A program made the position numbers and the translations under genes. From contig CAVRZT010000001.1 of the NCBI GenBank assembly GCA_963725775.1, forward strand, positions 675,568 to 739,567: DNA of 64,000 bases, given 5' to 3'. This document shows, piece by piece, positions 1,025 through 52,472 of the stretch. The stretch is from an uncultured Actinomycetes bacterium. Its GTDB lineage: Bacteria > Actinomycetota > Acidimicrobiia > IMCC26256 > DASPTH01. The notes beneath the pieces are model-generated. The model was not told the origin of the DNA. It ran no database searches and saw nothing but the letters and a program-made list of their open reading frames with translations. Every line of letters starts with the position of its first letter. The first letter of the stretch is position 1.

Positions 1025-1039
1025 TACGCTCCCGGGCCG

Positions 1040-3220: not shown

Positions 3221-4120
3221 ATGGGCATCTGCGACGGACGCGTCGTCATCGTCACCGGCGGAGGCCGCGGCCTCGGGCGCGCGCACTCGCTGGCGTTCGC
3301 GGCCGAGGGTGCGAAGGTCGTGGTCAACGACCTCGGCGCGTCGCTGCAAGGTGACGTCACCGACGAGTCGCCGGGGGCCGAGGTGGTCAACGACATCCGC
3401 GCTGCAGGCGGCGAGGCGGTCGTCAACGGCGACGACGTCAGCGACTGGGACGGCGCCGGCCACCTGGTCGCGCAGGCGATCGACGAGTTCGGGGGCCTCG
3501 ACACCGTGGTGTGCAACGCGGGCATCGTGCGCGACCGCATGCTGGTGAACATGTCGGTCGACGAGTGGGACGCGGTGATCCGCGTCCACCTGCGGGGGGT
3601 GTTCTGCCCGGTGCGCCACGCCATCGGCTACTGGCGCGACGAGCACAAGGCCGACCGCGGTCGGGCGGCGCGGATCGTCACGACCACGTCGGGGGCCGGG
3701 CTGCGCGGATCGATCGCGCAGTCGAACTACGTCGCAGCGAAGGCCGGGATCGCCGCGTTCACCATCAACGCGGCGGCCGAGCTCGGTCGTTACGGCGTCG
3801 TCGCCAACACGATCGCGCCGTCGGCCCGCAGCCGGATGACGGAGGATGCGATGCCCGAGATGATGGCGCGTCCCGAGACCGGGTTCGACGCGATGGATCC
3901 CGCGAACGTGTCGCCGTTCGTCGTGTGGCTCGGCAGCGCGGACTGCGAGGTGACCGGCCGCGCGTTCGAGATGGCGGGCGGTGACGTCTGCGTGATGAAC
4001 GGCTGGAGCCGGGGGCCGTCGGTCGACGAGGGTCGGCGGTTGGCGCCCGCCGAGGTCGGTCCGCTGCTGCGACGCCTCGTCGCGGACGCTCCGGTGCCCG
4101 AGGCGGTCCACGGAACCTGA
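3221..4120 (+). CDS. Short-chain dehydrogenase/reductase (hydroxyacyl-CoA dehydrogenase-like)
   Basis: ATG 3221 follows GAGAGAGG. Rossmann motif VTGGGRGLG and active-site YVAAK. 299 aa. Confidence 0.85.
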   Translation: MGICDGRVVIVTGGGRGLGRAHSLAFAAEGAKVVVNDLGASLQGDVTDESPGAEVVNDIRAAGGEAVVNGDDVSDWDGAGHLVAQAIDEFGGLDTVVCNAGIVRDRMLVNMSVDEWDAVIRVHLRGVFCPVRHAIGYWRDEHKADRGRAARIVTTTSGAGLRGSIAQSNYVAAKAGIAAFTINAAAELGRYGVVANTIAPSARSRMTEDAMPEMMARPETGFDAMDPANVSPFVVWLGSADCEVTGRAFEMAGGDVCVMNGWSRGPSVDEGRRLAPAEVGPLLRRLVADAPVPEAVHGT

Positions 4121-4132
4121 CAGGTCGTCAGA
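4116..4132. promoter_or_regulatory. Operator-like palindrome copy 2 (CCTGACAGGTCGTCAGA)
   Basis: CTGACA-GGT-CGTCAG overlaps the SDR stop codon. It lies 30 nt upstream of GTG 4162 of the TetR gene. Confidence 0.5.
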
Positions 4133-4161
4133 AACTTCCCGATCGGAGTAGCGTCACGCCC

Positions 4162-4801
4162 GTGACCGAGCCCGCACTCGCCTCCGACGGTCGGGTCATC
4201 GGCGCGCGCGCGCACCAGCACGCGGCGGCGCCTGCTCGACGCCACCGCCAAGTTGTTGGAGGAGCGCGGTGCGCTCGGCGTGCGCGTGGTCGACATCACC
4301 CGCGAGGTCGGGACGTCGCCCGCGACCTTCTACCAGTACTTCCCCGACGTCGAAGAGGCCATCCTGGTGCTCGCCGACGAAGCCACCGACGACATCGGGT
4401 CGTTGCGGCCCTACATCCTCACGCCGTGGAACGACGAGGACGGCGTCGTCCACGTGCAGCAGTTCGTCGCCGCGTTCATGGAGTACTGGGACCGTCACCG
4501 CGTGATCCTGCGGGTCCGCGACCTCCGGGCCGAGGAGGGCGACGACCGCTTCTGGGCCGCGCGCCGCAAGGGGTACGCGGCGATCATCCCCGAGCTCACG
4601 GTCAAGATCGAAGCCGCCCAGACGTCCGGCCGCGTGTCGAAGGAGCTCAACTCCTACGCCGCGGCCGCGGCGGCGATGGCGATGCTGGAACGACTGCTCA
4701 CGTACCGGTCGGTGTTCCGCCGGCGAGGCGTCACCAAGGAAGCGATGGCTGCGACCCTGGCAGCCATCCTGTACGAGACGGTCACCGGTCATCCGAGCTG
4801 A
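4162..4801 (+). pseudogene. TetR-family regulator, reading frame broken near the 5' end
   Basis: The HTH helix-1 sequence RTSTRRRLLDATAKLLEERG..VVDITREVGTSPATFYQYF is open from 4166 but has no ATG/GTG/TTG before TTG 4253. GTG 4162 (MTEPALASDGRVIGARA) is in the adjacent frame. The frames meet in a (GC)6 run at 4202-4213. Confidence 0.6.
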
Positions 4802-4827: not shown

Positions 4828-6033
4828 ATGGCCCGTGACATCCCCCGGTTCATCAGCGTCGACGACCACGTGGTGGAGCCTCCCCACCTGTTCCAGAAGT
4901 GGTTGCCGAAGAAGTACGCCGACGATCCCCGCGCGCCTCACGTCGAGCGCCGGGGCATCGGCAAGATGGAGTACAAGGGCGGCACGACCTACGAGATCGA
5001 GTGGGACGACACGCAGCCCAAGTCCGACACGTGGTTCTACGAGGAGCTCGTGGCACCGCACAAGCGCCACGTCGCTTCGGTCGGGTTCCCGCGCGACGAG
5101 ATGACGTTGTCGCCGATCACCTACGACGAGATGCGCCCCGGGTGCTTCGACCCGAAGGCGCGACTCGAAGACATGGACCTCGACCACGTCGAGGCGTCGC
5201 TCTGCTTCCCGACCTTCCCGCGGTTCTGCGGCCAGACCTTCGCCGAGGCGAAGGACAAGGACCTCGCCTGGGCGTGCATGCGTGCGTACAACGACTGGAT
5301 GGTCGAGGAGTGGTGCGGCGATTCCGGCGGTCGGCTCATCCCGCTGTGCCTCGTCCCGCTGTGGGACGTCGAGCTCGCGGCCGCCGAGGTGCGGCACAAC
5401 GCGGCGCGTGGGGTGACCGCGGTCGCCTTCTCCGAGATCCCGGCGAAGCTCGGACTGCCCACATTGCACTCCGGCTACTGGGAGCCGTTCTTCCAGGCCT
5501 GCGCCGAGACCGAGACGCTCGTGTGCATGCACATCGGCTCGTCGTCGCAGATGCCGGCGACGTCACCTGACGCGCCGGCCGCGGTGCAGGCGACGCTGAG
5601 CTTCGGCAACGCGATGTCGTCGATGACCGACTACCTGTTCTCGGGTGTGCTCGTGCGCAACCCGCAGCTGCGACTGGCGTACAGCGAGGGCCAGATCGGG
5701 TGGATCCCCTACATCCTCGAGCGCGCCGATGACGTGTGGGTGGAGCACCGGGCGTGGGGTGGCGTGCAAGGCGTGATGACCGAGCCACCGTCGTACTACT
5801 ACCACCGGCAGGTCTTCGGTTGCTTCTTCCGCGATCGTCACGGCCTCGAGTCGCTGCACCGCATCGGCGTCGACAACGTGACCTTCGAGACCGACTACCC
5901 GCACACCGACTCGACGTGGCCGCACACGAAGAAGCTGTTCGAGGAGCAGGTAGCCGACCTCGACGACGAAACCGTCTACAAGCTCGCCCGGGGCAACGCC
6001 ATCCGCATGCTCCGGCTGCCGCTCGACCGCTGA
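4828..6033 (+). CDS. Amidohydrolase_2-type metal-dependent hydrolase (about 400 aa)
   Basis: ATG 4828 follows GGAGCGAGGAA. Motifs ISVDDHVVEPP, MHIGSSS, FETDYPHTDSTWPH. Clear paralog of 20073..21278. Confidence 0.85.
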   Translation: MARDIPRFISVDDHVVEPPHLFQKWLPKKYADDPRAPHVERRGIGKMEYKGGTTYEIEWDDTQPKSDTWFYEELVAPHKRHVASVGFPRDEMTLSPITYDEMRPGCFDPKARLEDMDLDHVEASLCFPTFPRFCGQTFAEAKDKDLAWACMRAYNDWMVEEWCGDSGGRLIPLCLVPLWDVELAAAEVRHNAARGVTAVAFSEIPAKLGLPTLHSGYWEPFFQACAETETLVCMHIGSSSQMPATSPDAPAAVQATLSFGNAMSSMTDYLFSGVLVRNPQLRLAYSEGQIGWIPYILERADDVWVEHRAWGGVQGVMTEPPSYYYHRQVFGCFFRDRHGLESLHRIGVDNVTFETDYPHTDSTWPHTKKLFEEQVADLDDETVYKLARGNAIRMLRLPLDR

Positions 6034-6061: not shown

Positions 6062-6986
6062 ATGCCGCTCGACGCCGACTTCCTTGAAATAGCTGCGCGC
6101 GTCCGCAACTGGGGCCGCTGGGGTGACGACGACGAGTTGGGCACGCTCAACCTGATCGACGCCGCCGCGATCCGGCGGGGCGCGGCGTGCGTGCAGGACG
6201 GGAAGGCGTTCTCGCTGGCGATCCCGCTCGACGACAACGGGCCGCAGATCGGGTTCATTCCCGGTCGGTACAACCCGATCCACAAGGTGTTCCAGGTCAA
6301 CGAGGTCACCATCGGCGACCCCGACGGCACCCGATTCTCCGACGACCAGATGGATCTCGCGCTGCAGGCGTGCACCCACTGGGACGCGTTCGTCGCACTC
6401 GAGCTACGGCGGCAACCTCTGGAACGGTCATCCCGCCGACTCCATCACCGAAGCCGGCGCGGCCAAGTGCGGCATCGGGATGGTGAAGTCGTTGGTGACA
6501 CGCGGCGTGCTGCTCGACATCGCCCGGCTCAAAGGTGTCGACGTGGTGGAGGCGGGCACGCCGCTGACCGGCGCCGACCTCGACGCCGCGTGCGAGAAGT
6601 TCGGTGTGACCGTCGAACCCGGCGACGTCGTGCTGTTGCGAATGGGTGCGATGTCACTCTTCCTCGCCGGCGACCGCGTGGGGTATGCGTCGACGAACGC
6701 GGGACCGTCGCTGCAGAGCGTCGACTGGTTCCACGATTACGACGTCGCGGCCGTCGCCACCGACAACCCGACGTTCGAGTGCGTCGACTTCGAGCGTTCG
6801 GTGCCGTTGCCGGTGCACGCGCTGCACCTGGTCGAGATGGGGATGACCCAGGGCCAGAACTGGAACCTCGAGGAGCTCGCGGCCGACTGCGCGGCCGACG
6901 GCCGGTACACGTTCCTCCTGTCCGCCGCGCCCGAACCGGTGACCGGTGGCACCGGCGCGCCGGTCGTACCCGTCGCCGTGAAGTAG
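6062..6986 (+). pseudogene. Putative cyclase / kynurenine-formamidase-like protein, one frameshift
   Basis: The N-terminal part (..LQACTHWDAF) ends in garbage. The same protein continues in another frame as SSYGGNLWNGHPADSITEAGAAKCGIGMVKSLVTRGVLLDIAR (ORF 6480..6986). The switch is near 6393-6402. Confidence 0.7.
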
Positions 6987-7068: not shown

Positions 7069-7950
7069 ATGAAGTTCATCGCCAACATCTCGATGTGCGA
7101 CGCGTCGTTCTACGTGCCGCTCGCGCAGGCCGCCGAAGCTGCGGGCTTCGACACCATCGCGGTGCCCGACAGCATCGCGTACCCGAAGGAATCGTCGTCG
7201 ACGTACCCGTACAACTTCGACGGCACGCGCGAGTTCCTGGAGAACAAGCCGTTCATCGAACCCCACATCGCGATGGCGGCGATGAGCGCGGTCACGACCA
7301 CGATCGAGTTCCACACGTTCGTGTTGAAGATGCCGATCCGCCACCCGGTGATCTACGCCAAGGAAGCGACGTCGCTCGCGGTCATCACCGGCGACCGGTT
7401 CGTGCTCGGCGTCGGCACGAGCCCGTGGCCCGACGATTACGAGATCGTGCAGCTGCCGTGGGAAGGGCGCGGCCGCCGCTTCGACGAGTGCATCGCGATC
7501 GTGCGGGGCTTCGCCGCCGGCGGCTACTTCGAGTTCCACGGCGAGTTCTACGACTTCCCGGCGGTGAAGATGGAGCCGGTGCCCTCACGCCCGATCCCGG
7601 TGCTCATCGGTGGTCATGCCGATGCCAACCTGCGGCGCGCCGCGCGCCTGGGTGACGGCTGGATGGGTGCCGGCGGCATGCTCGACGACCTGATCCCGAT
7701 GATCGACCGCATGAACGATCTTCGGCGTGAGTACGGGCGCGAGCGCGAACCGTTCGACATCTACGCCACGGCGCCGGAGTCGTTCACACTCGACGGCATC
7801 AAGCGCCTCGAGGACCTCGGCGTGACCCACACCGCCGGCGGGTTCGGCCGCTTCAACCCCTACGGGCTCGAGACCGACCCCGAGACGCTGCAGGAGAAGA
7901 TCGACAACCTCCACCGCTTCGGCGACGACGTGATCTCCGCCACCCCATGA
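7069..7950 (+). CDS. Luciferase-like (LLM class) F420-dependent oxidoreductase
   Basis: 293 aa. AAGFDTIAVPDS, GVGTSPWPDDYE and PVLIGGHADANLRRAARLGDGWMG are typical of the LLM/F420 subgroup. RBS AAGGAAGGA. Confidence 0.85.
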   Translation: MKFIANISMCDASFYVPLAQAAEAAGFDTIAVPDSIAYPKESSSTYPYNFDGTREFLENKPFIEPHIAMAAMSAVTTTIEFHTFVLKMPIRHPVIYAKEATSLAVITGDRFVLGVGTSPWPDDYEIVQLPWEGRGRRFDECIAIVRGFAAGGYFEFHGEFYDFPAVKMEPVPSRPIPVLIGGHADANLRRAARLGDGWMGAGGMLDDLIPMIDRMNDLRREYGREREPFDIYATAPESFTLDGIKRLEDLGVTHTAGGFGRFNPYGLETDPETLQEKIDNLHRFGDDVISATP

Positions 7951-10350: not shown

Positions 10351-11760
10351 CTACGGCTTGACGGTGCGGCCCTTGGTGTTCACCGGGATGAGGCAGATGG
10401 TGTCCTCCGGCGGGGCCGGGAGCTTGCAGGGGTAGGTGGCGCGGGCCTCGAACGCGGTGGTCGGCGTCGTCTTCTTGTCGATGTAGACGGCGACGGGCGC
10501 ACCGCCGATCCCGCCGATCGGGTCGGGCGGGAGCTTCCGGAGCGCGTCGACGAACGTCTGCTGCGTCAGGTTCTCACCCGCGTCGTACATCGCGCGCGCC
10601 ACGATCCGCATGTTGGTGCACGAGAGCGCGACGACGCCCCACTTCGTGTAGCCCTCGGTGTCGGGCTCGAACGCGTCGCCGGTCGTGGTGTGCTTGGCGT
10701 AGGTGTCGTTGCACATCACGCCGATGGGTGGAGCCCCGAAACCGGGGAGGCGCCAGTCGCCGGCGACCGTGGCCGACACGACGGTGGCGCCCTTGTAGTA
10801 GTCGGCGACCTCCTTGCCACCCACCTGCAGCACCTTGCTCTGTACGAGGTCGGTGACGAGCGCGTTGTACGACGACTCGTACAACTTCGCCTTCATCCCG
10901 GCGCGCATCATCTCGTTCACGTACCCGGGCAACGTGGTCGCGGTGAGGACCGGGAGTACCACGTCGGGCTTGGCGGCCGCCAGCTTCATCACCGACTGTG
11001 GGATCGGCTGCGTGCAGACGATGTTGCCCTGGCACGGCATCACGTCGTACACGGCCACGTTCACCCCCGCCTTCTTCAGTGGATCCACCAGCGCTCGCTG
11101 GGTCACGTCGGCCTGGTCGGGGAGATCCGTCGCCACGACCGCGACCTTCTTGCCCTTCAGTGCGCCCGTCGCCACGAGGTCACCGGCCAGGAGCCGGAGC
11201 AGCCCGTCACCCGAGGGCCCGTACGACGCCAGGCGGCCGTTGGTCGACTGGTACGCAGAGTCCGGCGCGCCCCCGACGTACACGAGCGGTGTCTTGTGGT
11301 CGCCCGCGACGCAGATCGGCCCGGTGCCGGTGAGCGTGTTCGAATTGACGACGACGAAGGCCTTGTCGTCCTCGGTCGCGGCGATGCAGGCGGCGTCGCG
11401 GCTCGCGGGATTCGTGGGGTCGTACTCCTCGTTCTCCAGGACCACCTTGCGACCCCGGATGCCGCCGCACGCGTTGATCTGGTCGGTGAACACCTGGAAC
11501 ATGTCGTTGACGTCGCCGACGGGGAGCGAGTACCCGAGCGGTTCGTACTTCTCGAGCTGCGACCGGATCTGCACGACCTTGATCGTGCCCTTGGTCGGCG
11601 CGGGGCCCGTCTTGGTGCAGAAGGCGTCGGTCGGCGCGAACGGATTCGCCGACGCGTCGGCTGCGGTGCTCACCGCGCCTGCCGGCGCGACCAGTGCGAG
11701 TGCGACCGCGGCGACGCACGCGGCCACGAGAACACGAGCCCCCCGATTCACGTCGAGCAC
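10351..11760 (-). CDS. ABC-transporter substrate-binding protein (Leu/Ile/Val-binding-like, type 1 PBP)
   Basis: 469 aa. N-terminal signal/anchor RVLVAACVAAVALALVAPAGA. Overall resemblance to branched-chain amino-acid-type binding proteins. No cognate permease or ATPase in the window. Confidence 0.8.
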   Translation of the reverse strand: MLDVNRGARVLVAACVAAVALALVAPAGAVSTAADASANPFAPTDAFCTKTGPAPTKGTIKVVQIRSQLEKYEPLGYSLPVGDVNDMFQVFTDQINACGGIRGRKVVLENEEYDPTNPASRDAACIAATEDDKAFVVVNSNTLTGTGPICVAGDHKTPLVYVGGAPDSAYQSTNGRLASYGPSGDGLLRLLAGDLVATGALKGKKVAVVATDLPDQADVTQRALVDPLKKAGVNVAVYDVMPCQGNIVCTQPIPQSVMKLAAAKPDVVLPVLTATTLPGYVNEMMRAGMKAKLYESSYNALVTDLVQSKVLQVGGKEVADYYKGATVVSATVAGDWRLPGFGAPPIGVMCNDTYAKHTTTGDAFEPDTEGYTKWGVVALSCTNMRIVARAMYDAGENLTQQTFVDALRKLPPDPIGGIGGAPVAVYIDKKTTPTTAFEARATYPCKLPAPPEDTICLIPVNTKGRTVKP

Positions 11761-12673: not shown

Positions 12674-14394
12674 CTACCGGGCGGTGACGGTGTCGGTGTC
12701 GCGACCGGAGCGCAGCACGACGCCCGGCGTGGCGCCGGTGGCTGCGCCGTCTTCGACGATCGGCACCCCGCCCACCAGCACGCGCACGATGCCCTTCGAA
12801 CCGGCGGTGAGCCGGGCCGAGTCGCCGGGCAGGTCGGCGACCAGCGTCGCGTCGTCGGCGTCGACGGTGGCGGGATCGAAGACGACGACGTCGGCGACCG
12901 CGCCCTCGCACAGCACGCCGCGGTCGCGCAGCCCGAACAGCGACGCCGGCGCGCTGGTGATGAGCTGGACCGCCCGCTCGAGCGACACCAGCTGACGACC
13001 ACGGAGGCAGTCGGCGAGGAAACGGGTCGTGTAGGGCGCGCCGCACATGCGGTCGAGGTGCGCGCCGGCGTCGGACCCGCCGATCATCGCCCGCGGGTCG
13101 TTCCACACCTCGCGGCGCAGGTCCCACGAGGACTCGTCGTCGTCCTGCGGGATGGGCCACAGGACGGTGCGCAACTCGTCGGCGATCACGATGTCGAGCA
13201 GCGTGCCGAAGTTCGACTGACCGCGCTCGCGCGCGATGTCGCGTACGACCCGACCGCGCAGCTCCTCGTTCTCGGGCGCGTACATGTCACCGAGGCGGTA
13301 GTCGCCGAAGTCGGCGAGGCGACGGAACACACCCGCCTCGGGCGACTGCGACCACTCGAGCATCTGCAGCCGGGTCTCGGGATCGCGGAGACGCACGATG
13401 CGCTCCGGCACCGGCACGCTGAGCACGTCGCTCCAGCCGGGGATCAGCCAGATCCCGCAGAAGTTGAGGAAGCTCATGTTCATCGGGACCTGCACCGGCA
13501 TGGTGAGCGCGACCAGCTGCCCGCCGAGCTCGCGGCGCGGTCGCCGGCCGAGAGCTGGCGCGGCACGCGCTCGGGTTCGCGCGCGTCGACGGTGAGCACG
13601 TTCCAGTTCAGCGGCCGGTTGGCCGCCGCGCTCACCGAGCCGAGCAGCTCGATCTCGTCGTCGGAGAACTGGTCGAGGCAGCCCTGCACGATGCCCTCGA
13701 GCGTGGTGCCCGGGTGCGCGCCCGTCTCCTCGCTCATGGCGAGGAGCTCCTCGGGCGTGGCCCAGCGGCTCGCTACCGGCTGGCCGTCGCCGTCGCTGTG
13801 CGACGACGACTGCGTGAACGAGAAGCCGAGCGCGCCGGCGTCGAGCGCGCGGCCGAGCTCGGCGCGCATCTCGGCGATCTGCTCGGTGGTCGCCTCGCTG
13901 CCGACCGCGTCGGCACCCATCACGTAGCGGCGGATGGCGCAGTGCCCGACGAGGAAGCCGGCGTTGACCGCGATCGTGCCCTCGAACCGGTCGAGGTACT
14001 CGGCGAAGGTCTCCCACTTCCAGTCGACGCCGTGCTCGAGCGCGGGGAGCGGCATGCCCTCGACCCGCGCCATCATCCGGCGCAGGTAGTCGGCGTCGCC
14101 GTCGCGCAACGGGGCGAGGGTGAAGCCGCAGTTCCCGCCGATGACGGTGGTGACGCCGTGCACGCTCGACGGGCTCGCGGTCGGGTCCCACAGCAGCTGC
14201 GCGTCGTAGTGGGTGTGCGGGTCGACGAAGCCGGGGGCGACGACCAGGCCGTCGGCGTCGACGACGGTGGCGGCGGGCTCGTCGATGGTGCCGATGGCGA
14301 CGATGCGCCCGTCGGCGATGCCGACGTCGGCGACCACCCCCGGCGCTCCCGTGCCGTCGACGACCGTCGCGCCCTTGATGATCTCGTCGAGCAT
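12674..14394 (-). pseudogene. N-acyl-D-amino-acid deacylase (D-aminoacylase)-family amidohydrolase, one frameshift
   Basis: The N-terminal piece (MLDEIIKGATVVDGTG..GFVDPHTHYD..NWNVLTVDAREPERVPRQLSAGDRAA) continues in another frame (ELGGQLVALTMPV..GGSDAGAHLDRM..). The switch is near 13530-13538 and is consistent with one missing C. Confidence 0.7.
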
Positions 14395-14423: not shown

Positions 14424-14440
14424 TCTGACGGACCGTCAGA
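14424..14440. promoter_or_regulatory. Operator-like palindrome copy 3, perfect (TCTGACGGACCGTCAGA)
   Basis: Perfect 8+1+8 palindrome in the divergent region between starts 14394 (-) and 14560 (+). Confidence 0.6.
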
Positions 14441-14559
14441 TTGTAGCCTTGGCGCCGCACGATCGATCATGGCGGTACACGACCAGGAGTCGCAGCAGCG
14501 CCGTTGCCGGAGGCGGGACGGCGCTGCGGAGTCGACCGACGAACGAGGGGACCAGGCGA

Positions 14560-16032
14560 ATGGCCGACTGGCAGAACCACGAGTGGAAGCTCCTGATCGG
14601 GGGCGAGCTCGTCGCCGGGGAGGCCGGCACGGCGCCGATCGTGAACCCGGCGACCGAGGAGGTCGTCGGCGAAGCGCCCGAGGCGTCGGTCGCGCAGGCG
14701 CAGGAAGCCGCCCGCGCCGCGCAGGAGGCCTTCCCGGCGTGGTCGGCGACGCCGGCCGAGGAGCGCGCCGCGCTGCTGCTCGCGGCGGCGAACCGCCTGG
14801 GCGAGCTCGGGCCCGACCTCGTGCCGCTGATCATCTCCGAGACCGGCGCGACCGCGACCGTCGGCTCGCGCATGCAGGTGCCGGTCGCGCTCGAGCGCTT
14901 CCACCGCTACGCCCGCGACGCGACGAAGTCGATCGGCATCCCCATGCCGCCCCAGCCGGTGCAGTCGACGCCGCTCGCGCCCGGTGGGCTCATGGGCGCG
15001 TTCGTGAACCGTCAGCCGGTGGGCGCGGTGGCGTGCATCTCGCCGTACAACTTCCCGCTCACCAACATGGTGGGCAAGATCGCGCCCGCGCTCGCGGTCG
15101 GCTGCACCGTGGTGATGAAGCCTGCGCCGCAGGACCCGTTCGCCATCATCGTGCTCGCCGAGGTGCTCCGCGAGGTGGGCTTCCCGCCCGGGGTCGTGAA
15201 CCTGATCACGTCGGCGGCGCCCGACCCCGCGGCCGCGCTGAGCTCGAGCCGCGACATCGACATGGTGTCGTTCACCGGTTCCACCGCGGTCGGCGCCAAG
15301 ATCTACGAGGCCGGTGGCCCCACGATGAAGCGCATGCTGCTCGAGCTCGGCGGCAAGGGTGCCGCGCTGGTGCTCGACGACGCCGACATCGACGGCGCGG
15401 TCACCGCCATCGCCAGCGTGTGGGGGTTCCACAGCGGCCAGATCTGCACCGCGCCCACGCGCGCGATCGTGCACCGCAGCAAGTACGACGAGATGGTCGA
15501 GCGGCTCGCCGCGGTCGCCGGGAACATGAAGGTCGGCGACCCCCTCGACGAGGACACCATCGTCGGTCCGGTCATCTCCGCGGCCCAGCGCGACCGCATC
15601 GAGAGCTACGTCGCCGCCGGCGGCGATGAGGGCGCGGACATCGTGGTCGACGGTCGCCGTCCCGGCCACATGGAACGCGGCTACTACGTGGCGCCCACGC
15701 TGCTCGCCGGGTGCAAGCCGGAGATGAAGCCGGTGAAGGAAGAGATCTTCGGACCGGTGATCGTGGTGCTGCCGTTCGACGACGACGACGAAGCCGTCGC
15801 CGTCGCCAACAGCACCGACTTCGGGCTCTACGACTACGTGATGACCAGCGACACCGAGCGCGGGTTCCGGCTCGCCGGCCGCCTGCGTTCCGGCAACGTC
15901 GGCATCAACACCGCGCAGCGCAACATGGAGACGCCGTTCGGCGGCTTCAAGATGAGCGGCATCGGGCGTGACGGCGGCGACTTCGGGCTCCACGCGTACA
16001 CCGAGATGCAGTCGGTGGTGTGGCCCGCATGA
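14560..16032 (+). CDS. NAD(P)-dependent aldehyde dehydrogenase
   Basis: 490 aa. ELGGKGA, catalytic-Cys context SGQICTAPTR, FGGFKMSGIGR. Confidence 0.9.
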   Translation: MADWQNHEWKLLIGGELVAGEAGTAPIVNPATEEVVGEAPEASVAQAQEAARAAQEAFPAWSATPAEERAALLLAAANRLGELGPDLVPLIISETGATATVGSRMQVPVALERFHRYARDATKSIGIPMPPQPVQSTPLAPGGLMGAFVNRQPVGAVACISPYNFPLTNMVGKIAPALAVGCTVVMKPAPQDPFAIIVLAEVLREVGFPPGVVNLITSAAPDPAAALSSSRDIDMVSFTGSTAVGAKIYEAGGPTMKRMLLELGGKGAALVLDDADIDGAVTAIASVWGFHSGQICTAPTRAIVHRSKYDEMVERLAAVAGNMKVGDPLDEDTIVGPVISAAQRDRIESYVAAGGDEGADIVVDGRRPGHMERGYYVAPTLLAGCKPEMKPVKEEIFGPVIVVLPFDDDDEAVAVANSTDFGLYDYVMTSDTERGFRLAGRLRSGNVGINTAQRNMETPFGGFKMSGIGRDGGDFGLHAYTEMQSVVWPA

Positions 16033-17273
16033 CCGGAGTGTCGGACCGGCCCGCCATGCTCGAGGGCGTGCGCGTAGTCGAGTGCTCGCTGCTCGGCCCC
16101 GCCGCCATCACGTCGCATCTCGTCGACCTCGGCGCCGAGGTCATCAAGGTCGAGGCGCCCGCGGGTGACTACGGGCGCAAGATGACCTGGCCGCTGATGG
16201 AGGGCACGTCGCTGCTACACCTGCACGTGAACCGGGGCAAGCAGTCGCTGGTGCTGAACCTGAAGCAGCCCGAGGCGATCGCGGTGTTCGAGGACCTCGT
16301 GCGCGAGTCCGACGTCGTGATCGAGGCGATGCGCCCCGGCTTCCTCGCCAAGATGGGCCTCGGCTACGACCGGCTGAGGGAGCTCAACCCCAAGATCGTC
16401 ATGTGCACGATCTCGGGGTACGGCGCCACCGGCCCGTACCGCGACCTGCCGAGCCACGGCATCGCCTACGACGCGTGGTCGGGCACCATCCAGCCGGTGG
16501 TCGACGACGAGGGCTTCTGCCGCATCCCCGACCAGGCCAACATCGGGATCACCGCCGGCCCCGCCTTCGGTGCGATCGGCATCCTGGGTGCGCTCCTGCG
16601 TGCCGAGAAGACCGGTGAGGGCGCGTGCATGGAGATCGCGCAGTCCGACAGCTCCGCGTACTTCGACTGGTACCGCATCGAGACGTGGAAGGGCTACGAC
16701 GACTACCCCGATGACATCGTCACCGGGAACCCCAGTGACGACAACGAGCGACGCGCACCCGGACTCGGCGGTATGTGGGAGGGCGTCCGCTACCAGTACT
16801 ACGAGTCGTCCGACGGGCACATCCTCTTCATGGCGTCGGAGCAGTCGTTCTGGAAGAACTTCTGCGAGGGCGTCGGCCGCATGGATCTGTTCGAGAAGTG
16901 GCCGGGCAAGACCATCGCCGACCACGCGCGCGGCAACACGGAGCTCCAGGCCGAGCTGCGCGACATCTTCCGCACGCGCACGTCGCAGGAGTGGATCGAC
17001 TTCGCCGACGAGCACAACACCACCATCGCCCCCGCGAACACGGCGCAGACCGTGCGTCACGACCCGCAGTTCCAGGACCGGTTCCGGTGGACGACCTACG
17101 ACGAGGCCGGCGCCGACATGCTGCTGTTCCCGTTGCACGTCGAGGGCGAGGAGCTGCCGGTGCCGACCAAGGCGCCCGAGGTGGGGGAGCACACGGACCA
17201 GGTGCTCCGAGGTGTGCTCGGCTACGACGACGCCAAGCTCGCTGCGCTCCGCGACGCCGGCGCACTCGGGTAG
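16029..17273 (+). CDS. Family III (CaiB/BaiF) CoA-transferase
   Basis: ATG 16029 overlaps the ALDH stop (ATGA). N-terminal LEGVRVVECSLLGPAA..LGAEVIKVE and overall CaiB-like layout. 414 aa. Confidence 0.9.
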   Translation: MTGVSDRPAMLEGVRVVECSLLGPAAITSHLVDLGAEVIKVEAPAGDYGRKMTWPLMEGTSLLHLHVNRGKQSLVLNLKQPEAIAVFEDLVRESDVVIEAMRPGFLAKMGLGYDRLRELNPKIVMCTISGYGATGPYRDLPSHGIAYDAWSGTIQPVVDDEGFCRIPDQANIGITAGPAFGAIGILGALLRAEKTGEGACMEIAQSDSSAYFDWYRIETWKGYDDYPDDIVTGNPSDDNERRAPGLGGMWEGVRYQYYESSDGHILFMASEQSFWKNFCEGVGRMDLFEKWPGKTIADHARGNTELQAELRDIFRTRTSQEWIDFADEHNTTIAPANTAQTVRHDPQFQDRFRWTTYDEAGADMLLFPLHVEGEELPVPTKAPEVGEHTDQVLRGVLGYDDAKLAALRDAGALG

Positions 17274-17299: not shown

Positions 17300-18649
17300 T
17301 CAGTAGACGTCGAGCTTGACCTCGATCACGTTCTTCTTGGCGCAGTCGAACGTGCCGACCTTGCTCGGGAACACCCGCTGGAACGCACCGCTCTTCACCT
17401 GCATCAGCACGTGACAAGGGGTGGTCGTGCGGCCGGCGAGGTCGATGGTGCCGAACATGCCGTCGGCGCTGAACTCGTGGATGTTGTCGAGCGCCGCGAA
17501 GATCGACTTGCGGGTGACGCCGTTCACGCCATCGGCCTTGACGATGTTGTTCACCGCATCGCGGAACGCGATCATCGCGGACCACGCGTACACGCCGAAC
17601 CCGTCGGCCTTGTCGGCCCCCGTGTACTTCACGAAGTTCCGGAGCATCGGGTTGGCGTTCTGCTCCGCCTTGCTCAGGAACGGCAGGTACAGCGTGTCGA
17701 CGAAGTTGCCGTCGACGTCTTGGCCGCCCTGCGAGAGGAAGTCCCTGCTGTAGCAGCCGGTGGTGCAGTCCCACACCTTCACGTCGGTCAGACCCTGGAG
17801 CGCGGCCTCCTTGCGGAGCGCGACCTGCTGGGGACCCTGCGTCGCCTGGCCGTAGCTCGATCCGGCACTCTTCATCTCCTGGACCACCGGCGTGTACGCC
17901 GACTGCTGGGCGAAGCCCGAGATGTCGAAGTCCTTGTCGGAGGTGCAGCACACCTCGCGCACCTGTCCGATGCCGCTGGCGTACGACGAATCACGGGCCG
18001 ACTTCGAATCGCTGCCGAAGATGTAGATGCCGTGCAGGTCCTTGCCGAACTTCTTGTCGTAGTAGTAGCCGCGACCGACGTTGGGCTGGAAGGTCTGCGG
18101 GTGCTGGTCCTTGGTGGAGCAGATCACCTGCGGCGGGGCCATCGGGAACGACTGGTCCGAGCACTGCTGCGAGAGGTTCGTCGACACGAACGGGATGTCG
18201 GGCAGGCCGGTCACCGCACCGGTCGAGTCCCTGCAGTTGCGCATCTCGTCGACCGACGCCAGCGACACCGCCGACGTCCCCACCGCGGCGACGTCGTTCT
18301 CGCACGCCTGGATCTCGGCATTGGTCGTCGCGTTGGCGTTCAGCTTCGAGTCGTAGAAGTCGACCACGACCTTGCGGCCCGCGAGTCCACCGCCGCCGGC
18401 CTTGCTGTTCAGGTACTTGGCCGCGCCTTCGACCGCGTCCTTCGAACCCTTGAACAGGTTGGGCACGATCGCGTTGTCGACGTCGGCGATGACTGCGACG
18501 TGGATCTCGGTGGCGGTGATGCCGACGTCGGTCGCCTTGGGCGCCTCACCGCCGCTCGACTGCGCTCCTGCGGCGATCGTGGTCGCGGCGAGCGTTCCCA
18601 CCGACACCACCAGCACGAGGACGAGCGCCAACCAGCGAGCCTGCTTCAT
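17300..18649 (-). CDS. ABC-transporter substrate-binding protein (type 1 PBP)
   Basis: 449 aa. Signal peptide MKQARWLALVLVLVVSVGTLAA. Distant paralog of 10351..11760. Confidence 0.8.
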   Translation of the reverse strand: MKQARWLALVLVLVVSVGTLAATTIAAGAQSSGGEAPKATDVGITATEIHVAVIADVDNAIVPNLFKGSKDAVEGAAKYLNSKAGGGGLAGRKVVVDFYDSKLNANATTNAEIQACENDVAAVGTSAVSLASVDEMRNCRDSTGAVTGLPDIPFVSTNLSQQCSDQSFPMAPPQVICSTKDQHPQTFQPNVGRGYYYDKKFGKDLHGIYIFGSDSKSARDSSYASGIGQVREVCCTSDKDFDISGFAQQSAYTPVVQEMKSAGSSYGQATQGPQQVALRKEAALQGLTDVKVWDCTTGCYSRDFLSQGGQDVDGNFVDTLYLPFLSKAEQNANPMLRNFVKYTGADKADGFGVYAWSAMIAFRDAVNNIVKADGVNGVTRKSIFAALDNIHEFSADGMFGTIDLAGRTTTPCHVLMQVKSGAFQRVFPSKVGTFDCAKKNVIEVKLDVY

Positions 18650-18664: not shown

Positions 18665-18681
18665 TCTGACGGGGCGTCAGA
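18665..18681. promoter_or_regulatory. Operator-like palindrome copy 4 (TCTGACGGGGCGTCAGA)
   Basis: 7-bp perfect arms, 16 nt upstream of the binding-protein start at 18649 (-). Confidence 0.55.
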
Positions 18682-18760
18682 TTGCGGACGGCAGCATAGG
18701 CAGACGCTTCGCGTGCACCGGGAATCGAAGGAAGGCGCGATTCGGTCAGGCGCGCCGATC

Positions 18761-19305: not shown

Positions 19306-19340
19306 ACACTTTTCATGTGTTCACTACAGAGGCACTGTAG
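19306..19340. promoter_or_regulatory. Two adjacent small palindromes in the VOC/TetR divergent promoter
   Basis: ACAC-TTTTCAT-GTGT (19306-19320) and CTACAG-AGGCA-CTGTAG (19324-19340). Locally AT-rich. The second ends 6 nt before the TetR ATG. Confidence 0.35.
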
Positions 19341-19345
19341 CGAAA

Positions 19346-19996
19346 ATGTCTGAGCCGGTCAAGGCGCGCCCGTACCGCTCGTCGCTGCGGGATCGCCAGC
19401 GAGCGGTGACCCGCGCCGCGGTGGTCGACGCCGCCACGCGTCTGTTCGTCGAGCACGGATACGCGGGAACGTCGATCGCCAAGATCGCGACCGAGGCCGA
19501 CGTGTCACCGGAGACGGTGTACGCGGTGTTCGGCACCAAGCGCGAGCTCCTCAACGCCGTCGTGCACTCGGCCGCGACCGGTGTCGCCGAGGGAGGAGCC
19601 GTGGTCGAGGCGGAGCTGCTCGACCGGGTGCGGGCGGAACCCGACCAACGGCGGCGGTTCGACATGATGGCGGAGGCGACCCGCGACACCCTCCGGCGGG
19701 TGGGCCCGCTCGACGAGGTGGTGCGGGCGGCCGCGGTCGGTGATCCGGAGATCGCCGCGCTGCTGCGGGAACACGAGGCGCAACGCGTGGCCGATGCCCG
19801 GAAGCTCGTCGGGCTGCTGGCCGAGGCCGGTCCGCTCCGGGTGCCCGAACGGGAGGCCGCCGACCTGATGTGGGCGCTGTCGCGCAGCACCGACCTCTAC
19901 CGGGCGCTCACCGTCGACCGGGGGTGGAGCGACGCCCGGGCCTTCCGTGCCCTCAACGACGCCATCGCCCGCGTGCTGTTCCCCGACCCGAAGTGA
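19346..19996 (+). CDS. TetR-family transcriptional regulator
   Basis: 216 aa. HTH GYAGTSIAKIATEADVSPETVYAVFGTKREL. Confidence 0.85.
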   Translation: MSEPVKARPYRSSLRDRQRAVTRAAVVDAATRLFVEHGYAGTSIAKIATEADVSPETVYAVFGTKRELLNAVVHSAATGVAEGGAVVEAELLDRVRAEPDQRRRFDMMAEATRDTLRRVGPLDEVVRAAAVGDPEIAALLREHEAQRVADARKLVGLLAEAGPLRVPEREAADLMWALSRSTDLYRALTVDRGWSDARAFRALNDAIARVLFPDPK

Positions 19997-21285: not shown

Positions 21286-22029
21286 TTGGCGGACGACACC
21301 CTGCTCGTCGACGACGCCGACGGCGTCCGCACGATCACGATCAACCGGCCCGAGGTCAAGAACGCGCTGACCGCGGCGATGCGGACGCGGTTCAGCGAGC
21401 TGATCGAGGAGGCCGAGCACGACGACGCGACGCGGGCGATCATCGTGACCGCGGTCGATCCGGTGTTCAGCGCCGGGGTCGACTTCAAGGAGGTGGCGAC
21501 GGGCACCGGGGTCGGTGCGGTCACCAACCCGGGTGCGACGTTGCGAGCGGCGACCACGCCCGTGGTGTGCGCGGTCAACGGCGCCTGTGTCACCGGAGCA
21601 CTCGAGATCGCGCTGAGCTGCACGTTCGTCGTCGCGTCGGAGCGGGCGCGCTTCGCCGACACGCACGCGCGGCTCGACGTCGTCGCCGCGTGGGGCCTCA
21701 CCGCGTTGTTGCCCCGGGTCGTCGGCGTGCGGAAGGCCGCCGAGATGTCGATCACCGGCAACTTCGTCGACGCCGCGGAGGCGTTGCGCCTCGGCCTGGT
21801 CAACCACGTCGTGCCCCACGAGGAGCTGCTGCCGTTCACGCGCGCGCTCGTCGGCGACATCGCACCGACCGGGGCCGTGGCCGAGGTCCTGGATCTCTAC
21901 CGTCGGGGTGACGGCCTCCCACTCGCCGACGCGCTGGCGCTCGAGGCGGCGAACGCCGCGGACCGGCGCGTGGATCCCGCGGCCTTCGGGGCGGCGGGAT
22001 CCGCCGCTGCCGCCCGGAGCACGCCGTGA
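21286..22029 (+). CDS. Enoyl-CoA hydratase/isomerase family
   Basis: TTG start. ITINRPEVKNAL, FSAGVDF, VNGACVTGALE. 247 aa. Confidence 0.8.
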   Translation: MADDTLLVDDADGVRTITINRPEVKNALTAAMRTRFSELIEEAEHDDATRAIIVTAVDPVFSAGVDFKEVATGTGVGAVTNPGATLRAATTPVVCAVNGACVTGALEIALSCTFVVASERARFADTHARLDVVAAWGLTALLPRVVGVRKAAEMSITGNFVDAAEALRLGLVNHVVPHEELLPFTRALVGDIAPTGAVAEVLDLYRRGDGLPLADALALEAANAADRRVDPAAFGAAGSAAAARSTP

Positions 22030-22647
22030 CCGACGACTCGACGCGCGCCCGGGTCGTCGACGCCGCCGTCGCCTGCATCCTCGACGAAGGCTTCTACCGC
22101 GCCAGCTCCAACAAGATCGCGCGCCGCGCCGGCGTCACGTGGGGCGTCATCCAGTACCACTTCGGTACGCGGGAGGCGCTCATGCTGGCGGTGCACGAGC
22201 GCGGCGTCGACGAGCTCGACCGGTGCCTCACCGATGCCGTCATCACCGGCGACACGCTCGAGCAGCGGGTCGACTCGTTCGTCGACGCGCTCTGGACGTA
22301 CTACCGGCGGCCCGAGTTCCTGGCGTACATGCAGGTGATCCTCAACCTGAGCCACGATCCGACCACCGCCGACTCGACGCAGGCCGCGCTCGAAGTCGGT
22401 CGGCGCACGGGTCAACGAGCGGGTGCCGGCGCTGGTGCGCGCGGTGGTCGGGCCCGATCGGTCCGACGCCGAGGTCGAACGGATCGGCCGGTTCTTCTAC
22501 AACGTCGTGCGCGGGCTCGCGCTCGACCAGGAGCTCCTCGAGGCCATGCCCGTCGAGCACTCGACCACGGAGGAGTTCGACGCGCAACGAGCCGAGCTCG
22601 TACGCGTGCTCGCACGCGCGACGGGGGCTACGGGCGCCGCGAGCTGA
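22026..22647 (+). pseudogene. TetR-family regulator, one frameshift
   Basis: GTG 22026 overlaps the upstream stop (GTGA). The HTH FYRASSNKIARRAGVTWGVIQYHFGTREAL is intact. After ..AALEVGRRT the sensible sequence (VNERVPALVRAVVGPDRSDAEVERIGRFFYNVVRGLALDQ) is in another frame (ORF 22423..22647). The switch is at the GGG run near 22408-22410. Confidence 0.65.
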
Positions 22648-23083: not shown

Positions 23084-24186
23084 CTACGCGGGAACGGGTT
23101 GCGGCAGCTCGGCGAGCTGGTCGAGGTCGAACCCGAACACCTTGGCCGCGTTGCCGCTCACGATGGCGTCGAGGTCTTCCTGGCTGACGCCGTCGAACTG
23201 GTCGGCGTTCACGCTCTGCGACTCCGGCCACGTGCCTTCGGGGTGCGGGTAGTCGTTGCCCCACATGAGCGTCTCGACGCCGGTGATGCCGCGGTTGTTG
23301 ATCGCGACCGGGTCGTACATGAACGTCGCCGCGCACTGGCGCCGGATCAGCTCGCTCGGCTTGAGCGACAGCTTCGGCGACGCGTACATGCTGTGGTCCT
23401 CGTAGATCGCGTCGGCCTGCGTCATGATCCACGCCGAGCCACGACGCGCCGGTCTCGACGGTGACGATCTTCAGCTCGGGGAAGCGGTCGAGCGCGCCAC
23501 CGGCGGCGATCGTGAGCATCACCATGGGGCCGTCGAGCTGCGCGCCCATGAGGTAGTTGACGACCGCGCCGCCGGGGCCGCGCACCACGCGCGGCTCGTG
23601 GCCGGTGCCGGAGTGGAAGGTGAGCGGGAGGCCGAGCTCCTCGGCGACGGCCCAGAACGGGTCGTAGGCCGCGTCGTTGTAGGGCCGCTGACGGCACCTG
23701 GGCGGGAAGGAACAGCGCGCGGAAGCCCTGGTCGGCCACGACCTTGGCGTCTTCGATCGCGCCGTCGATGTCGAGCATCGACACCATGCCGACGGGGAGC
23801 AGCCGGTGGATCGTCGAACACGTCGCCGGCCCACGCGTTGTACGCGCGGCACAGCTGACGCTGGAACTCGGCGTCGTCGCTCGCGAAGCACGCCTGCAGC
23901 GCGAACGTCGGGAAGATCACCTCGGCGCTCACGCCGTCGCGGAGCCTGGTCGCGCAGACGGTCGTCGGCGTCGAAGTCGCCGACGATCGCGACCTCACGT
24001 TCGGACGCCGGCATCAGCTTGCGCGGCCCGAGACCCTTCGATCAGCAGGCGTGCGCCAGTCGCCGACGGTCTCGATGCGCGGGCACGCGGTCGCGGTACG
24101 CGGCGTCGACCCGCTCGCGCGTAGAGCTCGATCGGCTCGGTGACGTGCGAGTCGGTCGAGATGTAGATCGCGTCCCGATAGGTCAT
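23084..24186 (-). pseudogene. Amidohydrolase_2-type hydrolase, multiple frameshifts
   Basis: Recognisable pieces sit in all three frames. They are MTYRDAIYISTDSHVTEPIELY (24186), ERVDAAYRDRVP, RIETVGDWR, EVAIVGDFDADDRLRDQ and GVSAEVIFPTFALQACFASDDAEFQRQLCRAYNAWAGDVFDD. Further pieces are MVSMLDIDGAIEDAKVVADQGFRALFLP, YNDAAYDPFWAVAEELGLPLTFHSGTGHEP..VETGASW and a C-terminal WGNDYPHPEGTW. Confidence 0.75.
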
Positions 24187-24204
24187 GGAGTGAGCCTACG
24201 AGGG

Positions 24205-25364
24205 TCAGGGGGAGAGGACCAGACCGCTCCGCCCCGCCGACACGAGCACGTGCTCGGCGCCGGCGATCTGGTTGGCTGCGGTGCCGCGGAGCTGGCGCAC
24301 GCCTTCGACGATGTTGTTCATCCCGTGGATGTAGCCCTCGCCGAGCAGCCCGCCGTTGGGGTTGACCGGGAGCCTTCCCGCCCACCCGATGTGGCCGTCG
24401 GCGATGAAGTCGCGGGCCTCGCCCCGCCCGCAGAAGCCGAAGGCCTCGAGCTGGAGGAACACGATCGGGGTGAAGTTCTCGTAGATCATGGCGACGTCGA
24501 TGTCGTCGGGCGTGAGGCCGGCTCGGCGTAGAGGCGCCGGCCCATCGCCGCCGCCTCCTGGTGCTCGCCGAGGTCCTGGTCGTAGTAGGCGAACATCTCG
24601 CTGCCGCCCTCGCAGGTGCGCCTGGGTGGCCGAGAGGATGTCGACGGGCACGGTGGATCGAGGTCGCGCGGCCCGGTCTGCTCGGGTGACCACCAGCGCG
24701 ACGCCGCCGTCGCTCTCCTGGCAGCAGTCGAGCTTGCGCAGGATGGGTTCGACGATCCAGCGACTGGCCTGGTGGTCCTCGAGGGTGATGGGCCGCTAGT
24801 AGAACGGGGCGTTCGGGTTGGTGCTGGCCCAGTCGCGGGCGACGACGGGTAGCGCCCGAAGTCGACGTTGGTGAGGTCGTGCTCGTGCATGTAGCGCTGG
24901 AAGCCAGAGGGCGTAGATCTTCGCCGGCGTGTCGAGCCCGAACGGCATGTGGAAGTTCCACGCCGGGTCGGGGTCACCCGCCCGTTGCTGCGGTTGGCCG
25001 AAGCGGTGGCCGGACCGCTCGTTGAAGGCGCGGTAGACGAGCACGGCGTCGGCGTGGCCGCTCTCCACGGCGGCGGCGGCGAGCTGCACGGTGGCGCACG
25101 CGCCGCCGCCGCCGCCACGCGTGCGGGCCGTGAAGCGCAGCTCGGGCACCCCGCGCACCGGATGAGCGCCAGCTCGTCGTTGCACGTCCATCGCGAAGGT
25201 GACGGCGCCGTCGATGTCGGCGCGGGGTGAGCCCGGCGTCGGCGGATCGCGGCGGCGACCGCTTCGGCCGCCAGCTGCAGGGTGCAGCGGCCCGAGTTCT
25301 GCGAGAACTCGGTGTGGCCGATGCCGACGATCACGGCGCGTCGCTCGGCGGGGACGTCGCTCAT
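24205..25364 (-). pseudogene. SCP-x/nsLTP-type thiolase-like protein, multiple frameshifts plus an in-frame TAG
   Basis: Pieces, part 1: MSDVPAERRAVIVGIGHTEFSQNSG, ADIDGAVTFAMDV, PELRFTARTRGGGGGACATVQLAAAAVESGHADAVLVYRAFNE, WNFHMPFGLDTPAKIYALW and FQRYMHEHDLTNVDFG. Pieces, part 2: VVARDWASTNPNAPFY-TAG(24796-24798)-RPITLEDHQASRWIVEPILRKLDCCQESDGG, GSEMFAYYDQDLGEHQEAAAMGRRLY and GLTPDDIDVAMIYENF..LPVNPNGGLLGEGYIHGMN. Confidence 0.75.
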
Positions 25365-25760
25365 CGGCGACTCCGAGCCGGCCGGCAGGAACTGCGGGAG
25401 CACGACGTCGTCGACGGTCGTCGATGCTCAGAGCGTCGACGGCCATGCCGTTGTGGATCCGTCGTCGGGCCGCGTCGATCAGGTTGGAGACGATGCGGGT
25501 GCCCGTCCTCGAGGTCGACGAGGATGACGACCCGCGGCTCGTCGTCGGGCTCGGTCGGATGGTGCGAGACGATCCACGTGGACGGTGCCGCGGCCGGTCG
25601 ACTCCAGCGTGTCGAACTCGAGCGAGCCGCAGCGGGCGCACATCGGCGCGGGAGGGTGGCGCACGATGCCGCACGCCGCGCAGCGCTGGATGAGCAGCGT
25701 CCCGTCGGCGATCGCCTCCCAGAAGAAGGCGTCGTCGCGGTCGGGGATCGGGGGCTTCAC
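25361..25760 (-). pseudogene. DUF35 (Zn-ribbon + OB-fold) protein, frameshifted
   Basis: GTG 25760: MKPPIPDRDDAFFWEAIADGTLLIQRCAACGIVRHPPAPMCARCGS (CxxC..CxxC ribbon). It continues in another frame (IVSHHPTEPDDEPRVVILVDLEDGTRIVSNL..). The 3' end is approximate. Confidence 0.6.
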
Positions 25761-25770
25761 GGCCGGGCAG

Positions 25771-28609: not shown

Positions 28610-28620
28610 AGTAGTTACTA
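28609..28620. promoter_or_regulatory. AT-rich near-palindrome TAGTAGTTACTA in a divergent promoter
   Basis: It sits in the 40-bp gap between starts 28609 (-) and 28650 (+). It is the only A/T-rich stretch locally. Confidence 0.25.
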
Positions 28621-28649
28621 GGGAGCCTGGCTGGGGTAGGTTTCGCCCC

Positions 28650-29138: not shown

Positions 29139-29145
29139 GGCCGGC

Positions 29146-52440: not shown

Positions 52441-52455
52441 CGACGCTAGCTTGTT

Positions 52456-52472
52456 TCTGACGGACCGTCAGG
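52456..52472. promoter_or_regulatory. Operator-like palindrome copy 5 (TCTGACGGACCGTCAGG)
   Basis: Matches 16 of 17 positions of the perfect copy at 14424. About 80 nt upstream of the start at 52376 (-). Confidence 0.55.

Follow-up and report, generated by a model that had tools for sequence, protein, structure and literature searches.

We analysed a 64-kb stretch of DNA (69.5% GC; hereafter the window) from an uncultured Actinomycetes bacterium and consider it likely that a 17-bp palindrome occurring in it, TCTGACG-N3-CGTCAGA, is the operator of a TetR-family protein encoded in the same window, TetR-A (4162-4801), which would repress genes for CoA-dependent breakdown and uptake. We favour this reading because the sites are non-random, lie nearly all in non-coding DNA, are conserved before orthologous genes, are found together with TetR-A orthologues and stand at set distances from -10-like hexamers.

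Genes were called from third-position GC and annotated with Pfam. A strand-symmetrised position weight matrix (PWM) was made from the window's five sites and scanned over the 64 kb; the five score 23.2-28.6 bits, while all other positions score 9 bits or less. Exactly these five fit TCTGACG-N3-CGTCAGA, and all are promoter-proximal:

1008 to 1024: candidate operator O1, CCTGACGGGTCATCAGA, a weaker copy (23.2 bits), 15 nucleotides (nt) before the ATG (1040) of the acyl-CoA dehydrogenase gene ACAD1
4116 to 4132: candidate operator O2, CCTGACAGGTCGTCAGA, overlapping the stop codon of an SDR oxidoreductase gene, 29 nt before the GTG (4162) of TetR-A
14424 to 14440: candidate operator O3, TCTGACGGACCGTCAGA, a perfect palindrome in the divergent promoter region of the Amidohydro_3 and aldehyde dehydrogenase (ALDH) genes, 29 nt from the Amidohydro_3 ATG (14394) and 119 nt from the ALDH ATG (14560)
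18665 to 18681: candidate operator O4, TCTGACGGGGCGTCAGA, 15 nt before the ATG (18649) of the solute-binding protein gene BPx
52456 to 52472: candidate operator O5, TCTGACGGACCGTCAGG, 79 nt upstream of the ATG (52376) of the NRWY gene

The sequence-only reading of this DNA had reported the same five copies, and its coordinates and sequences are all correct. It had also described every copy as intergenic and upstream of a start codon; the upstream position holds, but the first 5 nt of O2 lie inside the end of the SDR gene (TGA stop at 4118-4120). The sites are as near to the start codons as had been claimed, with distances corrected to 15 nt for O1 and O4 (from 16) and 29 nt for O2 (from 30).

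When compared with shuffled sequence, CTGACRNNNYGTCAG gives 4 exact matches in the window against 0.02 expected. With as many as 3 mismatches allowed, the 17-mer has 5 matches against 0.75 expected, and none of 100 shuffles reaches 5. Chance recurrence of a GC-rich palindrome draws on the small number of sites in one window and on nothing more; it is refuted by these shuffle controls, by the bias towards intergenic DNA and by the orthologous conservation described below, and we give it practically no credence.

The closest relatives of the window, whose DNA is about 88% identical to the nearest of them, are long-read soil metagenome-assembled genomes (MAGs) labelled 'uncultured Actinomycetes' with MFD isolate names, which we take to denote the Microflora Danica survey; MAGs of Acidimicrobiia, Ilumatobacteraceae, Iamiaceae and Microthrixaceae come next. 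TetR-A loci (these and other loci are numbered with an L below) were gathered through exact-protein look-ups and an alignment scan of 185,579 species genomes, and a separate metagenome scan with the NRWY protein gave 79 loci, about 40 of them with a site of at least 20 bits. Sites scoring at least 19 bits were counted, with Markov shuffles as the control:

Non-Streptomyces TetR-A loci, 998 kb: 70 sites, 0-1 in shuffles
Streptomyces loci, 417 kb: 25 sites, 0 in shuffles
NRWY loci, 344 kb: 36 sites, 0-1 in shuffles

Pooled, the 1.76 Mb of related loci contain 131 sites against 0-1 in shuffles, and 128 of the 131 fall outside coding-like segments even though 86% of the bases are coding-like. A set of 128 unique sites refines the consensus to a-TCTGACG-(G/a)n(C/t)-CGTCAGA-t, effectively 19 bp, built of two 7-bp half-sites with centres 10 bp apart. 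The half-site positions show 85-100% conservation. The central triplet is variable, with complementary outer bases in no more than 43 of the 128, and the flanking A and T, which lie outside the search PWM, are 64% conserved against a background of about 70% GC.

The candidate repressor itself is encoded directly behind O2:

4162 to 4801, plus strand: TetR-A, candidate repressor, Pfam TetR_N (helix-turn-helix) and TetR_C_38 (ligand domain), frameshifted by +1 nt near 4217-4222 when compared with intact orthologues of 212 aa

Both domains are found on the window protein and on all homologues listed, and P0001, an intact orthologue of 212 aa, is 97% identical to it. The 38 PDB matches of the TetR-A profile (E≤0.001) are TetR-family proteins without exception. 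The recognition helix SPATFYQYF (S52-F60) is invariant in alignment A1, and the same peptide, used as a pattern, retrieved all loci, those of Streptomyces included.

Most loci with enough flanking sequence carry the palindrome either 14-95 nt before the TetR-A orthologue or at the start of the operon to which it belongs. The distance is 38-46 nt in L001-L005 and L008 and 46-97 nt in L009 and L010, and O2 is conserved in L001, L002-L005 and L008-L010. Where an SDR gene abuts the TetR gene, the site stands at the head of an ACAD-ACAD-SDR-TetR operon (L006, L011, L026, L057 and others); acyl-CoA-ligase-SDR-TetR and SDR-TetR operons also carry it at their heads. In the TetR-A-homologue loci the distances of the sites from the TetR start form two sharp peaks, one of 17 sites between -500 and 0 and another of 14 sites between -3500 and -2500; the latter corresponds to operons of the ACAD-ACAD-SDR-TetR or acyl-CoA-ligase-SDR-TetR type, at whose head the site stands. 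This linkage between TetR-A and the site spans protein identities from 97% down to about 42-45%. The earlier suggestion that the TetR gene at 4162 encodes the obvious binder and is autoregulated is strongly supported by this placement of the palindrome before TetR-A orthologues or their operon heads.

The Streptomyces homologues (L059-L087) are 36-39% identical to TetR-A and have the same SPATFYQY helix. Their variant sites are clustered 2-4 kb downstream of the TetR gene and not before the gene itself; paired variant sites lie between an ACAD gene (minus strand) and a thiolase gene (plus strand), and between an acyl-CoA ligase gene (minus) and a thiolase-ChsH2-like-enoyl-CoA hydratase (ECH) series (plus), examples being L071:12878, 12939, 2651 and 19667.

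A genuine operator could have another binder, either TetR-B (19352-19993), TetR-C (21999-22391+) or an unlinked factor, in which case TetR-A would merely be one of the regulated genes. Other TetR genes do occur near O3 and O4 in the window, and some TetR-A homologues have no strong site nearby. The site, however, tracks the TetR-A orthologues' own promoter or operon head across many lineages, whereas TetR-B and TetR-C are not common to those loci (the neighbour in L001 is a different one, of the TetR_C_24 type, and L006 and L007 lack any), and an invariant recognition helix pairs with an invariant half-site across 36-97% identity. TetR-B is an unlikely binder because its short upstream region carries a distinct palindrome of its own. 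Taken as a whole, we regard a binder other than TetR-A as improbable, and TetR-A remains our preferred candidate. The palindrome before TetR-B, CTACAG-N5-CTGTAG at 19324-19340, lies in an AT-rich region facing a divergent glyoxalase gene and is probably TetR-B's own operator.

Sites also recur upstream of the orthologues of ACAD1, Amidohydro_3, ALDH, Amidohydro_2, SDR and CoA-transferase genes. They precede ACAD1 in L006, L009, L010, L011, L017, L026 and L057, with the left half decayed in L008 and L001; Amidohydro_3 in L002, L006, L007 and L009; and ALDH in L002, L007 and L009. The O3 block AAGTCTGACG..CGTCAGATTGTAGCCTTGGCG is also found in L009 and, almost unchanged, in L002, and O4 is kept before BPx orthologues in three of four contigs (L168, L169 and L170), the copy in L167 being decayed. 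Amidohydro_2 orthologues in relatives have either a site of their own or the variant TCTGATACnGTGTCAGA. In alignments of orthologous intergenic regions, the operator and the adjacent hexamer form a conserved island, and one relative has TetR-A and NRWY about 15 kb apart on a single contig with at least 6 sites in about 36 kb. The palindrome had been proposed as the candidate operator of a local regulon. Phylogenetic footprinting and co-occurrence, with sites recurring before orthologues of every target unit, strongly support the operator and the regulon; 'local' is too narrow, as the regulon is conserved across Acidimicrobiia-like MAGs and has a related version in Streptomyces.

The variant palindrome TCTGATACnGTGTCAGA (17 bits) is present in relatives at L017:12578, L057:12360, L025:13067, L031:10713, L041:12312 and L012:3089, just upstream of the Amidohydro_2 orthologue in L017 and L057, and may represent a weaker or alternative operator class of the same repressor. 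The closely similar contigs L168 and L169 contain three tandem Peripla_BP_6 paralogues with an operator at or just inside each called start (8418, 9947 and 11546), adjoining ABC ATPase and permease genes. An operator at each of these tandem genes points to uptake of the substrate as a core part of the regulon.

Each site in the window stands next to a -10-like hexamer:

1025 to 1030, plus strand: -10-like TACGCT, abutting O1, 9 nt to the ATG at 1040
4149 to 4154, plus strand: -10-like TAGCGT, 7 nt before the GTG at 4162, conserved in the alignment
14440 to 14449: overlapping -10-like hexamers, TACAAT on the minus strand (14445 to 14440) and TAGCCT on the plus strand (14444-14449), the latter for ALDH
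18693 to 18698, minus strand: -10-like TATGCT, 11 nt upstream of O4
52443 to 52448, minus strand: -10-like TAGCGT, 7 nt after O5

Of 34 unique NRWY promoters, 30 have a TANNNT that begins 6-8 nt past the operator, at exactly 7 nt in 24 of them, and the half-site CTGACG would fall at the -35 position with a 17-nt spacer. TANNNT is also found at the equivalent position of the ACAD1 promoter in L009, L010, L011, L017 and L057, and the ACAD1 mRNA is predicted to be leaderless or near-leaderless. For TetR-A a leaderless mRNA is likewise predicted, in which case O2 would span roughly -45 to -29. The last T of TACAAT is base 1 of O3, and for this reason O3 would cover the transcription start of the Amidohydro_3 operon; a TAnnAT ending on operator base 1 recurs in several loci before Amidohydro_3 orthologues and before a second SDR type. 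O4 would span about +5 to +21 of the BPx transcript, and the corresponding hexamer reads TATGCT in L170 and TAGGCT in L168.

This register also bears on the idea that the element acts in RNA, as a hairpin serving as attenuator, terminator or processing site, or is a REP- or MITE-like repeat without any regulator. A perfect inverted repeat could fold into a 7-bp stem with a 3-nt loop, O1 and O2 come after the stop codons of the upstream genes, and O4 would be in a 5' untranslated region. However, the half-site sequence itself is conserved, without compensatory changes, and no site has a T-tract or a terminator call. The putative -10 hexamers of NRWY, ACAD1 and TetR-A come after the element, which would therefore not be transcribed from these promoters. 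The sites are, moreover, single copies before specific orthologous families, not dispersed, and lack a conserved flanking repeat structure. We judge a role as hairpin or repeat to be very improbable and continue with the operator of TetR-A.

Most likely, a TetR-A homodimer would bind both 7-bp half-sites through the invariant helix SPATFYQYF and repress by steric occlusion of RNA polymerase, which would be blocked because the operators overlie core promoter elements at constant spacing. The operator would cover the -35 element or spacer in the promoters of NRWY, ACAD1 and TetR-A, and the transcription start or the early transcribed region in those of Amidohydro_3 and BPx. Five operators would in this way control six units, namely ACAD1-ACAD2-SDR, TetR-A-Amidohydro_2-cyclase-F420-dependent luciferase-like (LLM) oxidoreductase, Amidohydro_3-ECH-binding protein, ALDH-CoA-transferase, the HAAT-type solute-binding protein BPx, and NRWY. 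By analogy with other catabolic TetR repressors, release might come from a pathway substrate or a CoA-thioester intermediate. The genes in and next to these units are:

30 to 980, plus strand: HipA_C kinase-toxin-like gene, immediately upstream of O1
1040 to 2230, plus strand: ACAD1, acyl-CoA dehydrogenase large subunit-like (Pfam Acyl-CoA_dh_N/M/1), 74-92% identical in relatives
2230 to 3195, plus strand: ACAD2, acyl-CoA dehydrogenase small subunit-like (Pfam, no middle-domain match), its start overlapping the ACAD1 stop
3221 to 4120, plus strand: SDR oxidoreductase, NCBIfam PRK07791 subfamily (433 bits, above the cutoff of 373)
4837 to 6033, plus strand: Amidohydro_2 family hydrolase/decarboxylase (Pfam)
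6062 to 6986, plus strand: putative cyclase family protein (Pfam), frameshifted near 6395; intact orthologue at L001:11904-12827
7069 to 7950, plus strand: F420-dependent LLM oxidoreductase (Pfam, TIGR03619)
10351 to 11760, minus strand: Peripla_BP_6 solute-binding protein (Pfam), last gene of the Amidohydro_3 operon, with the same synteny in L001
11779 to 12645, minus strand: ECH (Pfam)
12674 to 14394, minus strand: Amidohydro_3 ('D-aminoacylase-like') metallohydrolase (Pfam), frameshifted near 13535
14560 to 16032, plus strand: ALDH (Pfam)
16020 to 17273, plus strand: family III CoA-transferase (Pfam), all NCBIfam matches below cutoff
17300 to 18649, minus strand: BPx, secreted solute-binding protein; its orthologues are annotated Peripla_BP_6, in HAAT-type ABC transporter clusters
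51564 to 52376, minus strand: 'NRWY' protein (gene B), conserved hypothetical, 270 aa, no Pfam domain

The Amidohydro_2 gene is probably co-transcribed with TetR-A. With regard to the substrate, the NCBIfam scores of the ACAD, CoA-transferase, ALDH and Amidohydro_3 proteins are all below the equivalog cutoffs, and NCBIfam gave no match for Amidohydro_2 or the cyclase. The neighbouring binding proteins of the Peripla_BP_6 type call to mind the genomic surroundings of genes for the uptake of dicarboxylates and fatty acids. Relatives have another gene before ACAD1, and their sequences upstream of it do not align.

Several observations weigh against TetR-A acting through this operator. About one third of the TetR-A-homologue loci (31 listed) are without a site of at least 19 bits; many of these have short flanks or a TetR gene directly abutting the upstream gene, and some have degenerate or differently spaced copies (e.g. 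L069, L033 and L047). A 58-60% GC clade of NRWY loci is without the site. The tie between TetR-A and the site is one of co-localisation alone, which leaves formal room for an unlinked regulator. The consensus statistics of the 17 core positions are partly circular because the sites of the relatives were found with the PWM made from the window sites, which does not apply to the flanks or the promoter register. An E. coli-type sigma-70 scan, uninformative for a high-GC genome of actinobacterial type, gave no promoter at any site, and for this reason the promoter placement rests on the conserved TANNNT hexamers only. Finally, if the frameshift in TetR-A were real, the repressor would be an inactive pseudogene product in this organism.

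Alignment with orthologues located single-base indels in TetR-A (+1 nt, 4217-4222), the cyclase (around 6395) and Amidohydro_3 (around 13535), and other window genes switch reading frame in the coding-potential scan. These frameshifts are probably errors of long-read assembly, an explanation that we favour over real pseudogenisation because single-base indels affect many genes and genes are equally fragmented in related long-read contigs. Elsewhere in the window an ACAD gene lies in three pieces at 29883-31099 and repeated frame switches occur at 23105-28849 (minus strand); a 1264-aa open reading frame (25479-29273, minus strand) covers DNA in which the coding-potential signal changes frame repeatedly, and may be either a real unusual gene or an artefact of broken genes that overlap.

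Among known systems, KstR and KstR2 of cholesterol catabolism in Mycobacterium and Rhodococcus are alike in being autoregulated TetR repressors with a repeated short palindrome before CoA-dependent catabolic operons, and their targets also include ACAD pairs, enoyl-CoA hydratases and CoA-transferases. As with KstR, the motif described here can be detected purely by its recurrence and is conserved across an actinobacterial lineage. The consensus sequences are TnnAACnnGTTnnA for KstR and AnCAAGnnCTTGnT for KstR2; neither shares a half-site with TCTGACG-N3-CGTCAGA, and this direct comparison agrees with the earlier statement that the motif matches neither of them. The hosts differ as well, Mycobacteriales in one case and an uncultured Acidimicrobiia-like MAG in the other. 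A profile search found no KstR or KstR2 chain among the 38 PDB matches of TetR-A, and no kshA, kstD or hsaA-D was found among about 60 Pfam-annotated window segments; P450 and ChsH2-like/thiolase genes occur elsewhere or in relatives, never adjoining the window sites. Identity with KstR or KstR2 was rejected, as motif and gene content differ, and nothing in the analysis points specifically to a sterol as the substrate.

The best PDB sequence match of TetR-A is EthR (M. tuberculosis Rv3855), a distant one, nearly full length (residues 24-210) with an E-value of about 1e-11. Some members of the TetR-A family also match Pfam PF21313, presumably the EthR-type C-terminal domain. EthR is similar in repressing the gene of an oxidative catabolic or activating enzyme; however, its operator is described as larger, more complex and multi-copy, and not a classical short palindrome (PMC4482099), whereas the simple 17-19 bp palindrome here is compatible with one dimer. 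With TetR/tetO and QacR-type systems the arrangement shares a TetR_N helix-turn-helix, a 15-28 bp inverted repeat over promoter elements, occlusion, presumed release by a ligand and a regulator beside its targets. It differs from them in that the targets serve catabolism and uptake and do not encode an efflux pump, that TetR-A is mostly co-directional (at the end or head of an operon), not divergent, and that the operators are spread over a regulon of several operons. ACAD1 and ACAD2 form a large/small pair as do PimC/PimD and IpdE1/IpdE2, and the nearest NCBIfam models are PimC for ACAD1 and IpdE2 and PimD for ACAD2, but the scores are far below the equivalog cutoffs (PimC 235 vs 624, PimD 117 vs 653, IpdE2 130 vs 450).

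The proposed switch is of an ordinary kind and is apparently undescribed; searches of the literature, a survey of mycobacterial TetR-family regulator motifs included, gave primer noise and no paper on the motif or on the TetR subfamily in question (PF19352/TetR_C_38). We suggest only tentatively, and with some doubt, that TetR-A and TCTGACG-N3-CGTCAGA constitute a KstR-like master switch for a pathway of CoA-dependent catabolism and uptake that has yet to be described. Such a pathway would be widespread among the uncultured Acidimicrobiia of soil and freshwater and would be related to a regulon of Streptomyces. If this were true, the core of the pathway would comprise a PimCD/IpdE-like heteromeric ACAD, Amidohydro_3, Amidohydro_2, F420-dependent oxidoreductases, HAAT-type binding proteins and the NRWY enzyme, and the operator would give a genome-wide handle on the extent and the substrate of the pathway. 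Soil, freshwater and activated sludge are rich in Acidimicrobiia, which are almost uncultured and, to our knowledge, essentially without experimentally defined transcription-factor regulons. An operator of high information content (about 25-28 bits) with an identifiable repressor would be a cheap and specific probe for a conserved catabolic regulon in metagenomes, and those culturable Streptomyces that share the recognition helix and have a near variant of the motif offer a test bed. Since the layout is that of textbook TetR-type repression, the value lies in annotation and pathway discovery, not in a new principle.

The operator would also give a functional context to the large, Pfam-less NRWY family. 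The sequence-only reading had called gene B of this family, and it is a real gene at 51564-52376 on the minus strand. Every one of its approximately 1,300 homologues is annotated as hypothetical. The confident AlphaFold model (pLDDT 88) consists of two ferredoxin-like (ABM/Dabb-type) domains in tandem and is alike, in fold only (TM 0.5-0.6), to sulfur oxygenase reductase, to cofactor-independent monooxygenases (anthrone-oxidase-like and PenE) and to bacterial chalcone isomerase. The sites of the NRWY loci lie 29-108 nt upstream of the homology match and are usually the only site in the locus; an O5-like site is also present in L171.

A distant NRWY paralogue, 'gene A' (about 29146-29871, plus strand), shares the DWNRWY motif with gene B (25% identity over 77 aa, E 0.03); it has no Pfam match, and the PWM scan of the window found no operator upstream of it. 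Close relatives have an ACAD gene (L090:1741-2934, minus strand) that is transcribed divergently from NRWY and starts about 25-35 nt past the operator. The window lacks that ACAD gene at 52473-52650 and has a gene for a small secreted protein (52650-53138) at a distance of about 180 nt, which suggests a local rearrangement beside the NRWY gene of the window.

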